Positions 1 through 20,794 of a stretch of 33,211 bases of DNA are shown here, piece after piece. The notes under the pieces were generated by a model, which worked only from the letters and a program-made list of their open reading frames with translations, was not told the DNA's origin and searched no databases. Each line of letters opens with the position of its first letter. Within the stretch, counting starts at the first letter, position 1. The position numbers were made by a program, and so were the translations under genes. The stretch is from NCBI GenBank assembly GCA_038912545.1, contig JBCLFD010000004.1, positions 1 to 33,211 on the forward strand. The letters are read 5' to 3'. The stretch is from Minisyncoccia bacterium. GTDB taxonomy: Bacteria > Patescibacteriota > Minisyncoccia > Phycocordibacterales > Phycocordibacteraceae.

Positions 1-375
1 AACTTCAGTCTTGCGACTAATCGCACGTATAAAGATAAGAATGGTCAGAAGCAGGAAACAACCGAATTCCATAACGTCGTCGCATTCGGACGCACAGCAG
101 AGGTCATCGCGCAGTACTGTAAGAAGGGTCGTCCTATCTTCGTTGAAGGTCGTATCACGACGCGCTCATGGGATGATAAAGAGAGCGGAAAGAAGAATTA
201 CCGTACAGAAATCATTGTGGAGAACTTCCAATTCGGTGCTGATGGTGGAAAGGGCGGAGGTGGAACGAGCACAAACGTCACCCCCGCCGAAGGCAGATCC
301 GCCTCTGGCGGAAAAAACAGCGAGGAAATTCAGTACCCTGATGAGCAGATTAATCCCGAGGACATTCCGTTTTAA
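1..375 (+). CDS. ssb: Single-stranded DNA-binding protein, 5'-truncated by window edge
   Basis: Frame 1 translation (not in ORF track): NFSLATNRTYKDKNGQKQETTEFHNVVAFGRTAE...VEGRITTRSW...YRTEIIVENFQF, Gly-rich linker, C-terminal EDIPF, stop at 373-375; followed by rpsR. Confidence 0.97.
   Translation, partial: NFSLATNRTYKDKNGQKQETTEFHNVVAFGRTAEVIAQYCKKGRPIFVEGRITTRSWDDKESGKKNYRTEIIVENFQFGADGGKGGGGTSTNVTPAEGRSASGGKNSEEIQYPDEQINPEDIPF
283..312 (+). repeat. 30-bp in-frame palindromic element, family A copy 1 (encodes PAEGRSASGG in SSB linker)
   Basis: cccgccgaaggcagatccgcctctggcgga; 27/30 identical to 7317-7346; CCGCC/GGCGG terminal inverted repeat. Confidence 0.85.
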
Positions 376-413
376 CTACAGACTATCAACTACAACCTAC
401 TAACTATTTATAT

Positions 414-620
414 ATGGCCCACCAAGCTGAACGTGAAGAAATAGAAATTAAGAAATGCATTGACTATAAGGACGTTGCGTACCTGAAGCAATTCACCAAT
501 CCGCATGCGAAGATGCTCTCCAAGAAGCGCACTGGCATCCCCGCAGGGAAACAGCGCGATATCATGCAGGCCATCAAGCGCGCCCGCTATATGGCGCTCA
601 TGCCCTACGTCTCTGCGTAA
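414..620 (+). CDS. rpsR: 30S ribosomal protein S18
   Basis: IDYKD..LKQF...KMLSKKRTG....QR....AIKRARYMALMPY motif; ssb-rpsR synteny. Confidence 0.97.
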   Translation: MAHQAEREEIEIKKCIDYKDVAYLKQFTNPHAKMLSKKRTGIPAGKQRDIMQAIKRARYMALMPYVSA

Positions 621-637
621 CAATGTATAATCTGGAC

Positions 638-1501
638 ATGGAACAACCTTCTAGTCCGGAAAGACCTAAGAAAAAAGGATATTCTATCGAGTATACGAGG
701 CCTCTGATAGAGACTGGAGATGGATATAATCCTGCTATTACATTAACTGATGACATTACTCATGAGCTCATAGCTAAGATAATAAGCGGGCGGGTGTACA
801 CGGGCCTTTCTATTTTAGAACATGAGGCAAATAGTCACATAGAAGAATCAAAACAACTCCTCGAAGAAAATTTACATGACGATGACTTGGAGGGTAAGAG
901 GTATGTTGACAACGAGAAGCGTACTATCGCTCATTGGGAGAATCAATTGAAATTGGTACGAGAACTGTGGATTAAAAACAATGATAGATTCAAGATCACA
1001 ATAGAAAGTTACCTCGATGAGGTTAGAACGTATCCAAACAACCATTCTCTAATGGAGTGTATGGCGTCCTGCATTTTGATACCATTTTCTTCCGAACAAG
1101 AACCAGCGAAGTTAATAAATATAGGAGGACATCGATATACTGTCAGTAGTCTTCGAGTGGGAGATACGGAAAAATATTTCCTCACCACAACAGACGCTAA
1201 AATGGAAGAAGTAAGAGACAAAGACCAACCAGAATTTATAGGCTATCGCTCATGGTATGAAGGACGTTTTTCGATTGGGCGTTACGACTCTTACTATTCT
1301 GATCTGGATCATAAAACTGGAGAAAGAATTGAATCACACAGAATCTATGTGGATGTTCTAGTGCGATCTAAAGATGATTTAGATAGAGCCACGGAATTAA
1401 GAGATAGTATTGCAGAGAAAATAAAGACAATGAAGGAATTGGAGATAAAAGAATTCGGGCTTCTTCACGAAGAGAGAACAGATAACGGCTGGGTACCTTA
1501 A
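638..1501 (+). CDS. Hypothetical protein, AT-rich, charged (ORF track start 623; ATG 638 preferred)
   Basis: Long open frame, lower GC than flanks; TATAAT at 626-631 lies 6 nt before ATG 638; no family recognised. Confidence 0.7.
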   Translation: MEQPSSPERPKKKGYSIEYTRPLIETGDGYNPAITLTDDITHELIAKIISGRVYTGLSILEHEANSHIEESKQLLEENLHDDDLEGKRYVDNEKRTIAHWENQLKLVRELWIKNNDRFKITIESYLDEVRTYPNNHSLMECMASCILIPFSSEQEPAKLINIGGHRYTVSSLRVGDTEKYFLTTTDAKMEEVRDKDQPEFIGYRSWYEGRFSIGRYDSYYSDLDHKTGERIESHRIYVDVLVRSKDDLDRATELRDSIAEKIKTMKELEIKEFGLLHEERTDNGWVP

Positions 1502-2082
1502 GTGAAAAGTCTTTTTTCGACCCGTTCGGTGTATTCGCCCGTGTCGGTGTTGATGCGGACGATGTCGCCCGTATTGATAAAGAGTGGGACGTTGACAGAG
1601 GCACCCGTGGAGAGTTTCGCGATTTTGGTCCCACCCGAGACGGTATTGCCTTTGACTGCCGGCGGAGCATCAGCCACTTCGAGGTCAACTTTCACGGGGA
1701 TTTTAATCGTCATTGGCCTGTCTTCGTAGATAAGTACATCCACAAGCGCGTTTTGCGCGAGCCACTGCACGCGGTCGTGCACGATATTTTCTGGGAAGGC
1801 AAAACGATTTTTTGCATTGCCTTCTTCCGCGAACCAGCTCTCGCCCTTATTGGTATATAAATAGCGCGCTTGCATGGTACTCACGTCCGCCTCGCTCACC
1901 GTCTCGTTCTGATGGAAGGAAATTTCAACCACTTTGCCCGAGACGAGATGGCGAAGCTTCGTTTGATTGACCGGCTTCCTCTGTTGCATACGAAAGATGT
2001 GCGCCGAGAGCACATCGTACGGCTCACCGTTATAGGTGATGATTGTTCCAGAAAGTATTTCGTTGTAAGATAATATTGCCAT
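1498..2082 (-). CDS. efp: Translation elongation factor P
   Basis: YLY, PPAVKGNT.SGG.K.A.LSTG..VNVPLFI..GD.VRINT.TGEY.ER C-terminal signature. Confidence 0.95.
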   Translation of the reverse strand: MAILSYNEILSGTIITYNGEPYDVLSAHIFRMQQRKPVNQTKLRHLVSGKVVEISFHQNETVSEADVSTMQARYLYTNKGESWFAEEGNAKNRFAFPENIVHDRVQWLAQNALVDVLIYEDRPMTIKIPVKVDLEVADAPPAVKGNTVSGGTKIAKLSTGASVNVPLFINTGDIVRINTDTGEYTERVEKRLFT

Positions 2083-2224
2083 ATTATCTTGCTCCCTGCG
2101 TGCGCTCGAACAAACATCTGAAAACAGACATTTGATTCTCGCTTACTTGGTAGTAACTAAGAATAGCCATATGTAGTTATAAAAATTACCGCAAGACGCG
2201 GATTCGTGTATGCTAGCAGACATA

Positions 2225-2809
2225 ATGGCTTTATCAAGTTTTAGAGATGATGTCGGCTCATTGACAGATGCCGAGGTACTCGCGCGTTCACGCAGAGAAC
2301 CCTCGCTTTTTGCCGAACTGGTCCGTCGCTACGAAGCGCCACTCCTGCGCCGGGCGCGCACGGTGTTGCACAGCAAAGAGGATGCTGAAGAGGCCGTGCA
2401 AGACGCCTTCACGAAGATGTATCTCTATGCCGACAAGTATCATGCGCAAGAGGGAGCGAGCTTCTCTTCATGGGCGTACACGATTTTGAATCGGGTCGCG
2501 TATACAAAATATACGACGCGTCGTAAACAAGGGAGCCAGCGCGTTGAGTTGGAAACAGAGCATTATGAATCTCTACCGGACTCCCGCGCCGAATTCTTAG
2601 AAGATTTATCCATCAGAAACGAAGTACTCGCTGCGCTCGCGAAACTGCCTGAAACCGCGGCAAAAATCCTTCGGTTGCAGTTTATTGAAGGGAAGACGCA
2701 GGAGGAGATAGCGGAGAGTGAGCAGCTCTCTATCCCTGCGGTGAAAACGCGGGTGCACCGCGCGAAAAAACTTTTCAAAGAAGCATACGATGATCAACAA
2801 ATACTATGA
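2225..2809 (+). CDS. ECF-family RNA polymerase sigma factor (start 2210 or 2225)
   Basis: Region 2 F.ELVRRY...DAEEAVQDAF....FSSWAYTI..R; region 4 LP....ILRLQFIEG.TQEEIA.....IPAVKTRVHRA. Confidence 0.93.
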   Translation: MALSSFRDDVGSLTDAEVLARSRREPSLFAELVRRYEAPLLRRARTVLHSKEDAEEAVQDAFTKMYLYADKYHAQEGASFSSWAYTILNRVAYTKYTTRRKQGSQRVELETEHYESLPDSRAEFLEDLSIRNEVLAALAKLPETAAKILRLQFIEGKTQEEIAESEQLSIPAVKTRVHRAKKLFKEAYDDQQIL

Positions 2810-19482: not shown

Positions 19483-19568
19483 GGTGTGCGCATCACACTG
19501 CGTGTGATGCGAGATTTAAATATTTAAACATTTAAATTTCGCATCGCGCATAGCGCGATGCGCATGCT
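19483..19568 (+). other. Expansion of 23S helix 68 with nested palindromes
   Basis: Between GCCGGAAGGTCAA and AAGCCCCGGTGAA; three internal hairpins closed by ggtgtgc/gcatgct. Confidence 0.8.
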
Positions 19569-19620
19569 GGACTGTGTAAGCCCCGGTGAATGTCGGCGAT
19601 AACTATAATCGTCCTAAGGT

Positions 19621-19806
19621 TCGCGGTGTGACTTCGGTCGCACCGCGAAGGACTAGGACGATTGTAGGGTGAACAGAATGCACCAAGTTACCTGAGTATG
19701 GAGTAATCCGTACTTTGTCCAACAATGACTCAAATGAGAGGCCATACGTCATGATCCGCGCAAGCGGAATAAGATATGGTCCTTCGCGTGTTAAAAGGAA
19801 ACGAAG
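19621..19806 (+). mobile_element. 186-nt group I-like intron after 23S U1931-equivalent, no ORF
   Basis: Splits GTCCTAAGGT|AGCGCAATTCC; follows U, ends in G; P7 gaggcca/tggtcc, J8/7 AAGATA, P8 tccgc-gcaa-gcgga. Confidence 0.8.
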
Positions 19807-20548
19807 AGCGCAATTCCTTGTCGAGTAATTTTCGACGTGCACGAATGGTGTAACGACTGGGGGACTGTCTCGAGGACTGGCTCGGTGAAAATGCAATTCC
19901 GGTGAAGATGCCGGATACCTGTAGTTAGACGAAAAGACCCCAGGAGCTTTACTACAGCTTCGTATTGGCCCTACGTGATTCATGCGTAGCATAGGTGGGA
20001 GGATTTGAAGCGAGGGTTTCGGCTCTCGTGGATCCGTCAGTGAAATACCACTCTTGAATTGTGTAGTGTCTAACCCTGTTGGGATCCAACAGGGGACCGT
20101 GCGTGGCGGGTAGTTTTGGTGGGGCGCTATCCTCCTAAAAAGTAACGGAGGAGTCTATTAAGGTTCTCTAGGCGCGAATGGAAACCGTGCCGATAGTGTA
20201 ATGGCAAAAGAGAGCTTAACTGCGAGGGGTACATCCCAAGCAGATGCGAAAGCAGAGCATAGTGAACCGATGGTACGCTTTAGATGCGGCCAGAGATTAA
20301 CGGATATAAGTTACCCTGGGGATAACAGGCTAGTTCCGCCCAAGCGTCCATAGCGACGGCGGAGTTCGGCACCTCGATGTCGGCTCAACATAGCGCGGGG
20401 GTGAAGAAGCTCCCAAGCGTTTGGCTGTTCGCCAATTAAAATGTTACGTGAGCTGGGTTCAGACCGTTCAGCATCTCATTGATGAGATGGGAGATTGAAC
20501 GGTCTGAATCCACGAGGAAATGTTAGGCACGTGGAGACGTGCTGTGCG

Positions 20549-20611
20549 TCCCGTTAGAGACAAGAACTTCACCAAAGTTCTGGCTTGCTAAAGCAAGCGT
20601 CTCTAACGGGA
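20549..20611 (+). repeat. 63-bp MITE-like element, family D copy 2 (inside L2593 intron)
   Basis: Identical to 17376-17435 except in one hairpin loop. Confidence 0.9.
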
Positions 20612-20726
20612 TGCGATAAGACAACTCACGGCGGTCGCGCGCAGGAATGCGCGTGTAAGCAAATCAACTGATATCGGTGGAATCCGCTTTTAATGCGGCG
20701 GACAATACCGAGGGAATAGAGACGGA

Positions 20727-20794
20727 AAGCAGTAAGCAGTAAGCAGTAAGCAGAAATTCTCTGCCTACCGCCTACCGCATTCTGCCTACTGTTT
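20727..20794 (+). repeat. Heptamer-array foldback element, family C copy 2 (in intron P6)
   Basis: aagcagt x3 + aagcaga, loop, then tctgcct accgcct accgcat tctgcct actgttt. Confidence 0.85.

Follow-up and report, generated by a model that had tools for sequence, protein, structure and literature searches.

What are the short palindromes that recur, in several unrelated sequence families, inside the genes and structured RNAs of a single contig from a Minisyncoccia bacterium, and how did they come to be there? The stretch analysed here (the window, 33,211 nucleotides) is the entire contig JBCLFD010000004.1, contig C4 of an assembly (GCA_038912545.1) of 534,028 bases in 28 contigs. An initial annotation, made by a model without database searches, had described five families in it, here named A to E, and proposed that they form one system of tiny non-autonomous elements mobilised in trans. 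We compared the source genome (G000) with relatives of the same Patescibacteria genus (G001 and so forth) and counted the families across a sample of 121 genomes of that genus. We conclude, with a probability of about 0.7, that the window holds several independent families of tiny, non-autonomous, hairpin-forming mobile repeats that have spread within the genus. That the elements are insertional and spread by copying is highly probable. They fall into at least three mechanistic classes, namely the twin palindromes A and B, which have no target duplication; the MITE (miniature inverted-repeat transposable element) D, with terminal inverted repeats (TIRs) and target-site duplications (TSDs); and the heptad-repeat hairpins C. 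Support for one system mobilised in trans is therefore only partial.

A repeat finder, a tandem-repeat finder and direct reading agree on all five families, each with at least two copies at the places first described (Table 1), and every family has more copies in the genome or in relatives. Moreover, orthologues in relatives show presence/absence polymorphism and empty sites, so that both observations on which the mobile interpretation had been staked, additional copies and polymorphism, were made. The proposal that the elements are insertional, belong to several families and add peptide or RNA sequence in linkers and loops is thus borne out, as is the statement that the window has no transposase (none among the 30 window open reading frames (ORFs) scanned). 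Two claims on siting need correction. In-frame location within genes is right for A and for the B copy in L7/L12, and wrong for the first B copy (B1), which is intergenic; location in peripheral RNA loops is right for group I intron 1 of the 23S gene, the 23S helix-25 tip and the L10 leader, D copy 1 lying instead in the 23S 5′ leader. A scan of the genome for adjacent twin hairpins with the same 6-bp stem yielded 7 hits, spread over 5 loci, and the same scan of each of five second-order Markov shuffles yielded none; perfect 6-bp-stem hairpins numbered 1914 against 1072-1190 in shuffles. Of the 121 genomes, the reversed-pattern controls picked out 0 for A, 2 for B and 0 for E. No Rfam family covers any of the elements: at gathering thresholds the whole window yielded 23S and 5S only, and scanning 20100-22300 and the L10 region by E-value brought in nothing beyond the group I intron, RNase P and chance matches.

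Family A is built on a 15-bp palindrome, TCCGCC-NNN-GGCGGA. The usual form is this unit followed by its reverse complement, an inverted doublet (twin) that makes a 30-bp palindrome and generally stands before AAA or AAG; perfect 30-bp palindromes occur at 50359 on contig C1 and 2505 on contig C15. There are nine copies in the source genome, eight twins and one perfect single unit. A loose search for single units (up to 2 mismatches) gave 44 hits against 17-34 in shuffles, and because such hits are mostly noise only the nine are counted. All of them (9/9) are intragenic, in one phase, and read S-A-x-G-G-S-A-x-G-G-(K); the SSB copy lies in frame 1 of a reading frame ending ...DIPF. Besides the hosts within the window, copies were found in RecR (Toprim loop), in RpoA (linker between N- and C-terminal domains), in the C-terminal tail of L31, where the element encodes SSKGGSASGGK (contig C10, 4852-5205, locus L295), in a class I aminoacyl-tRNA synthetase, where the element separates the catalytic domain from the anticodon-binding one, in a solute-binding protein and in one unnamed protein. 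A stretch similar to the L31 tail is also A-encoded in the N-terminal region of RpoD in G102. A class I aminoacyl-tRNA synthetase of 1121 residues (contig C1, 82760-86125, L293) contains a histidine-phosphatase domain (His_Phos_1) at 501-664, inside its catalytic region.

Across the genus, A twins were found in 19/121 genomes, with 1-12 copies each, and 102/121 have none. In a frame test of 20 copies from the 19 genomes, the phase-0 reading frame was the longest in 17/20 and had a Pfam match in 15/20, the 15 named hosts being ClpB, FtsK, transketolase, TatD, class V aminotransferase, GatC, a GIY-YIG protein, a TyrRS/TrpRS-type synthetase, an SMC_N protein, RecG, DnaE, ComM, GroEL, RpoD and FtsW. 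Subfamilies of A share diagnostic paired changes (a CCCGCC...GGCGGG unit) at many loci. The left flank favours TT and the right flank AAA, with T at -2 in 19/26 and A at +2 in 21/26, and no target duplication is visible at the insertion sites.

Comparison of orthologues gives these insertions clean boundaries. At the site in the DeoR-like protein, G010 is empty (CAT/AAA GGA CAT), G013 has one 15-bp unit and the source genome has two, with the loop apparently flipped (AGA in G013 vs TCT in G000). In ComM, G009 has exactly 30 bases more than the source genome, between TTG and AAG. When 18 host reading frames of relatives were aligned against the source genome, gaps of 10 (TyrRS/TrpRS-type synthetase), 10 (ComM), 9 (RecG) and 11 residues (an unnamed protein) were seen, along with smaller ones in GatC (4) and FtsW (6). 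ClpB was of equal length in both, the source genome having a decayed A copy there; FtsK was filled in both genomes compared, and the transketolase region was too variable for judgement. The TatD, SMC, DnaE and GroEL queries had no match in the source genome, and five other alignments had no comparable site, four not spanning it and RpoD matching only the source genome's own A copy in L31. Among 30 aligned genomes the FtsK site is filled in G000 and G009, and G127 is filled too; in most close relatives FtsK is 8 residues shorter. The SSB site is filled in 4/30 (G000, G009, G019 and G001), the other 26 having an unrelated stretch of roughly equal length. Decay is also evident: the G001 SSB copy has kept the peptide and lost the palindrome, and remnants of A persist in ClpB and FtsW of the source genome. 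In the SSB copy of G009, pairing is maintained by a paired T-to-C and A-to-G change.

The B unit is a 21-bp palindrome, CCCCGAC-N7-GTCGGGG, mostly doubled to 42 bp and present in 33/121 genomes, with a few loop types that recur. Within long reading frames B mostly reads A-P-T-x-x-V-G twice, and like A it shows no target duplication. In L7/L12 the element forms the hinge without lengthening it: in 28/30 relatives the hinge is equally long and of the ordinary Ala/Val/Gly/Pro kind, and B is also found in the hinge of G019, with a compensatory stem change, and of G066. The native hinge of relatives contains GTCGCGGGCCCCGCAGC, which comes close to the B centre. That the hinge palindrome arose in place from a similar GC-rich centre was considered and rejected, as this fails to explain identical twins elsewhere.

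Family D is ~60 nt long, with 13-bp inverted ends, two inner hairpins and no coding capacity. Its copy in intron 1 is present in 3/14 aligned genomes (G000, G007 and G017), the others being empty with a single TGCG in place of the flanking pair; BLAST showed that G134 is filled at the same site. D occurs at no fewer than 6 different loci, with TSDs of TGCG, TGAA, TGGA and CGCG, and copies in G005 and G050 have no clear target duplication. Among 13 aligned copies the outer stem formed by the 13-bp ends is invariant, and 9/27 predicted pairs show compensatory changes. The end sequence is present in 21/121 genomes, with ~14 copies in G010. At four loci D sits at a start codon (L185, L187, L190 and L193), where its last A and the duplicated TGAA or TGGA rebuild the downstream ATG.

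Family E is a hairpin seen at the tips of RNA helices and occurs in 11/121 genomes. The source genome has three copies, in the L10 (rplJ) leader, in 23S rRNA and in P3 of RNase P RNA, the leader copy matching the P3 hairpin exactly in reverse complement. Relatives have a short hairpin in the L10 leader, with the exception of G023, which has E in the opposite orientation, and G012, which has an A-like palindrome. In the RNase P RNA of G045 (L225; 2250-2700 of its contig C4) E is found in three different helices and P3 is occupied by something else.

Family C consists of heptad-repeat hairpins, in which 7-nt tandem repeats face their complement on the other arm. The source genome has ~30 heptad arrays, six of them as close hairpins (15205-15292 and 20722-20795 in the window, and contigs C2, C5 (two) and C10), and 5-60 nt separate the C hairpins from the ends of genes. 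With G-U replacing A-C, these six hairpins fold more stably antisense to the genes beside them in 5/6 cases, with 1 tie. The copy in the loop of intron 1 is found only in the source genome among 14 aligned genomes; the same intron in other genomes has other hairpins instead of C, with R1-type palindromes (described below) and AT-rich families elsewhere in the intron. In the rplJ-rplL spacer G016 has hairpins of other heptads, and there are relatives with only 2-3 nt.

What could move such repeats? The source genome encodes four proteins with Y1_Tnp matches and a weak fifth that resemble the tyrosine transposases associated with repetitive extragenic palindromic (REP) sequences, known as RAYTs. 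Their best NCBIfam match is the REP-associated tyrosine transposase, at 22-69 bits against a cut-off of 80. In each of five relatives there are 4-10 such genes, and many of these are bracketed by their own palindromes with 3-nt loops. In the source genome the flanking palindromes are of other families, R1 on contig C17, R2 on contigs C10 and C16 and R4 at 7208 on contig C16. R1 (AAGGT-NNN-ACCTT) has 21 copies, often as doublets, of which 18 lie in called genes, so that this RAYT-linked family also lives mainly inside genes; R2 copies are nearly all intergenic.

A second candidate is a clade of small GIY-YIG genes, found in G059, G069 and G102 with 71-100% identity. In 3/3 of these genomes the start codon is preceded, at a distance of 5-6 nt, by an A twin, and in G059 and G102 a second twin follows ~110-120 nt after the gene, G069 having one side only. 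Flanking copies at GIY-YIG genes, which the initial annotation had suggested looking for, are seen for A in three relatives and not in the source genome. The encoded protein has a Pfam GIY-YIG match and no NCBIfam family. Together with a complete tRNA-Ser(UGA), the gene sits between pieces of a second tRNA-Ser (L270/L277 in G059, L268/L279 in G102 and L278 in G069), and an A twin lies in the anticodon loop of the split tRNA-Ser, exactly between CTTG and AAAAC; the arrangement may represent a mobile cassette which interrupts a tRNA gene and carries a spare one with it. An A twin is absent from the remaining 23 small GIY-YIG loci that were examined, one of which, in G131, has one A-like palindrome at 50 nt upstream. 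The layout recalls the one set out for Ssn in sections of PMC11893778, where copies of a hairpin repeat of 20-50 nt (NTS or SRM), also dispersed in the genome, stand on either side of a small single-domain GIY-YIG gene; hairpin, gene and hairpin follow one another in G059 and G102, and G069 matches on one side. Unlike the NTS, 2% of which lie inside genes according to the same sections, A is nearly always inside genes, and no oriented CGTC-type tag stands beside it. Ssn nucleases are not known to move their repeats, and the portion of PMC11893778 concerned raises, without answering it, the question of whether they spread their own hairpins.

By a rough home-made gene caller the source genome is ~89% coding, and copies would therefore survive mainly where added sequence is harmless, that is, in frame in disordered protein linkers and surface loops, at the tips of peripheral RNA helices and in short intergenic spacers. 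We propose that A and B, in each of which a palindrome of 15 or 21 bp is doubled in inverted form to a length that is a multiple of three, would enter a site without duplicating the target, often immediately 5′ of AAA or AAG, and that their surviving frame would give a Gly/Ser/Ala-rich or Ala/Pro/Thr/Val/Gly-rich peptide, identical in either orientation. After insertion they would decay by point mutation while the added peptide remains. E may be a hairpin module that occupies or replaces the terminal stem-loops of RNA genes. The palindromes would probably be moved by enzymes encoded elsewhere that act on single-stranded DNA hairpins, the candidates being RAYT-type tyrosine transposases in the case of the sister families R1, R2 and R4 and a small Ssn-like GIY-YIG nuclease in that of A; D would need a separate transposase. 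We regard service of A by the GIY-YIG clade as tentative, at somewhat less than even odds, and movement of B and E by HUH enzymes as doubtful. A bolder version, which we think rather unlikely, is that A and B are “coding palindromes” shaped to give the same harmless linker peptide both ways and copied by Ssn-type GIY-YIG nucleases rather than tyrosine transposases. Pairs of Ssn gene and hairpin would then be true mobile elements, living almost wholly inside the essential genes and structured RNAs of ultra-small bacteria and continually remodelling linkers and helix tips.

Several observations weigh against the reading of mobile repeats. A, B, D and E flank none of the 35 RAYT-like loci, scanned as whole loci (5 in the source genome, including L258, and 30 in five relatives rich in A), and the REP/RAYT parallel drawn initially thus applies to R1, R2 and R4 and not to these four families; at two of the loci an A twin lies ~1.2 kb away. 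The A-adjacent GIY-YIG clade is present in 3/19 A-bearing genomes, is missing from the other 16 and was not found in the source genome, whose own GIY-YIG loci (L035-L039) lack motifs of A, B, E and R1 out to 1.5 kb. Moreover, the three adjacent cases share one gene layout and may therefore represent a single evolutionary event. Pairs of D ends in the 121 genomes are all 48-78 nt apart and none is 0.7-2.5 kb apart, so that no autonomous D partner is seen. The carriers of one filled A site are not sister species in a quick FtsK tree, and repeated hits, losses or exchange are therefore needed. In SSB, L7/L12 and P3 of RNase P RNA the element displaces native sequence with little or no change in length, which plain insertion does not predict. 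Lastly, the assembly is rated 82% complete and our gene caller overlooked RecR, a caveat on the gene calls.

Some of these points would suit an enzyme-free spread, in which template switching or short-patch ectopic gene conversion between GC-rich quasi-palindromes overwrites a linker or helix tip. Such a process is in keeping with the same-length replacements in the L7/L12 hinge, the SSB tail and P3, with the filling of the same sites in non-sister species, and with the occurrence of GTCGCGGGCCCCGCAGC in native hinges. It also fits the lack of target duplication and of a cognate RAYT for A and B, and the apparently flipped loops at the DeoR-like site. It is harder to reconcile with exact 15- and 30-bp insertions at sites unlike the element (CAT/AAA and TTG/AAG), with the many unrelated host genes, with the diagnostic paired changes common to A copies at many loci, with the flank bias, and with an A twin directly before the nuclease gene in three genomes. 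We consider this account unlikely.

Could the repeats instead be functional sites selected by the host, such as terminators, RNA-processing hairpins or recognition sites for Ssn-type nucleases that police incoming single-stranded DNA? The closeness of C hairpins to gene ends, the position of B1 directly after a stop codon, and the compensatory pairing in the G019 L12 copy, the G009 SSB copy and D all point in this direction, and sections of PMC11893778 describe an influence of Ssn sites on transformation in Neisseria. Set against this, all nine A copies of the source genome are intragenic, a setting in which a terminator would do harm, copy number is low and patchy, with most genomes lacking an A twin, the DNA decays while the peptide persists, and C folds better antisense to its neighbours. 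Host selection as a general account is therefore quite improbable. For A and B an ordinary terminator is ruled out by their in-frame position inside genes; B1 and the C hairpins may be ordinary terminators. That the similarities arose in place through linker-peptide selection and codon bias, or are assembly artefacts, is close to refuted by identical codons in unrelated genes of 19 independently assembled genomes, by perfect 30-bp palindromes, by the same hairpins in RNA genes and spacers and by clean empty sites, even though TCC GCC (Ser-Ala) is the reverse complement of GGC GGA (Gly-Gly), so that Gly/Ser/Ala-rich linkers tend to be self-complementary, and peptide selection would likewise leave the kept peptide and decayed palindrome of the G001 SSB.

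Palindromic repeats inside genes are already known from other bacteria. Rickettsia palindromic elements (RPEs) lie in frame in many unrelated housekeeping genes, which stay intact, and have no known transposase, as described in parts of PMC10969869 and PMC3733652. A and B resemble them in being in frame in many unrelated reading frames, in leaving the gene intact and in inhabiting a small genome. Unlike RPEs, which are ~150 bp (range ~100-150) with family-specific peptides according to a section of PMC10969869, A is 30 bp and B 42 bp, and it is by that description of size, rather than by any sequence relationship, that they are set apart from the RPE families. They also differ in being inverted doublets with the same peptide in both orientations, and in belonging to a different phylum. 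Intragenic REPs are likewise known, many in replication and repair genes (in the relevant part of PMC3733652), and REPINs are inverted REP doublets linked to RAYTs (in the relevant part of PMC3116915). A shares with them a short GC-rich palindromic unit in inverted doublets, R1 forms doublets too, and the R1, R2 and R4 palindromes that flank RAYT-like genes in the source genome follow the REP/RAYT pattern of a RAYT gene with its own palindrome alongside, from which A, B, D and E depart. Unlike REPs, which are mostly extragenic, A is wholly (9/9) and R1 largely (18/21) intragenic in the source genome.

The RNA-borne families have parallels of their own. In Nostoc, P6b of the tRNA-Leu(UAA) group I intron is a hairpin of degenerate heptanucleotide repeats that varies in length between strains (from a section of PMC3488679). 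The C hairpin of intron 1 is similarly made of 7-nt repeats on both arms in a peripheral group I intron loop; it differs in intron, gene and phylum, and C-type heptad hairpins occur at ~15 further places in the genome. D resembles bacterial MITEs in its 13-bp TIRs, 4-bp TSD, length of 60-80 bp, lack of coding capacity and burst of ~14 copies. It is unlike them in being very short, in having two inner hairpins that vary yet keep pairing, and in lacking, within the 121 genomes, a related autonomous element that shares its ends; its copies are found in an rRNA leader, in an intron and at start codons. Allomyces mitochondrial double-hairpin elements and yeast mitochondrial GC clusters are similar in spirit, and the cyanobacterial short tandemly repeated repetitive (STRR) heptamer families are a parallel to C. 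Among the literature matches listed, we found no paper on such elements (palindromic, RAYT or REP) in Patescibacteria or the candidate phyla radiation (CPR). What is distinctive here is the tiny size, the near-exclusively intragenic location of A and R1, the orientation-independent peptides, the RNA-helix module E and the adjacency of A to a GIY-YIG gene.

As mobile repeats, these families would show how selfish sequences can hold on where a genome has hardly any spacer DNA, by living inside genes and RNAs. Very conserved proteins are hit, including SSB, RpoA, L7/L12, L31, FtsK and RecR in the source genome and GroEL, RpoD and DnaE in relatives, and the insertions amount to a natural map of positions at which proteins tolerate extra residues. 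The elements would provide a steady supply of new linker and RNA-loop sequence. By the same token, copies inflate the divergence of marker genes and rRNA among Patescibacteria and may lead alignments astray. Moreover, the position of A next to a small GIY-YIG gene offers a direct way to ask whether Ssn-type nucleases spread their own hairpin repeats.

Table 1. Repeat copies and surrounding features, in window coordinates unless a contig is named.
Feature	Position	Strand	Remarks
SSB, C-terminal part	1-375		
A twin in SSB	283-312 (283..315 with AAA)	+	disordered tail, after OB fold; reads PAEGRSASGGK
EF-P	1498-2082		
RecA	3135-4184		
FtsK	4520-6730	-	
A twin in FtsK, 27-30 bp, partly decayed	6068-6097	-	linker between membrane part and alpha domain; reads SARGAPIGG
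Conserved DeoR-like protein with helix-turn-helix (HTH)	6795-7577		
A twin in DeoR-like protein	7317-7346 (..7349 with flank)	+	just before HTH; reads SAEGGFASGGK
Wzy_C-like gene	11976-14282		
Two R1 palindromes	13309-13354	+	in frame in Wzy_C-like gene
B twin hairpin (B1), decayed, intergenic	14283-14324	+	starts at first base after stop codon of Wzy_C-like reading frame
E hairpin of L10 leader	14664-14690	+	terminal hairpin of rplJ leader
rplJ	14728-15219		
C hairpin	15208-15288	+	(AAGCAGT)n facing (ACTGCYT)n, rplJ-rplL spacer
rplL	15305-15730		
B twin hairpin	15468-15509	+	hinge of ribosomal protein L7/L12
B, third copy of source genome	contig C1, 738		
D copy 1	17376-17435	+	23S 5′ leader, outside processing stem; same-place copy in G061
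23S processing stem, 56 nt	17460-17515 paired with 21990-22045		
23S gene	start 17508		
E hairpin of 23S rRNA	18152-18178	+	tip of helix-25-equivalent hairpin; 10 nt beyond consensus length
Group I intron 1 of 23S	~20468-20889	+	ORF-less, conserved; site between GAACGU and CGUGAGACAG of E. coli
D copy 2	20549-20611	+	intron 1, after P2-like hairpin; TGCG on both sides
C hairpin	20727-20790	+	peripheral loop of intron 1
Group I intron 2 of 23S	20954-21769	+	near 3′ end; LAGLIDADG ORF 21102-21590
5S	22094-22207		
FtsW	23018-24166		
Single decayed A-like unit	23054-23068	+	near FtsW N-terminus; full twin at same site in G073

The two 23S introns, both close to the 3′ end of the gene, differ in their load of repeats. 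Intron 1 carries D copy 2 and the second C copy, and its loops are hypervariable across relatives; none of the repeat families lies inside intron 2, for which relatives show an intron-less junction and which scores 30.3 bits in Rfam, under the gathering score of 50. Elsewhere in 23S an AT-rich hairpin of ATTTAAAT repeats (19490-19565) puts ~100 nt in place of ~31 consensus positions; relatives are without it, and the motif recurs in the RNase P RNA of the source genome, on contig C11 and in intron loops of G011. A 97-nt direct repeat, 77% identical, is found at 25336-25432 and 26071-26167, beside NYN-domain and glycosyltransferase genes. The most over-represented 11-mers of the source genome (up to 24 copies) come from repeated GTCGTCGTCCCGATGCCGACGTTGCC on the small contigs C9, C22, C26 and C28, a stretch that probably encodes a repeat protein on the opposite strand. 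Just upstream of the 23S leader, at 17312-17337, there is a hairpin AAACCGCCC-(C)8-GGGCGGTTT; together with similar stems on contigs C5 and C8, it looks like a terminator.

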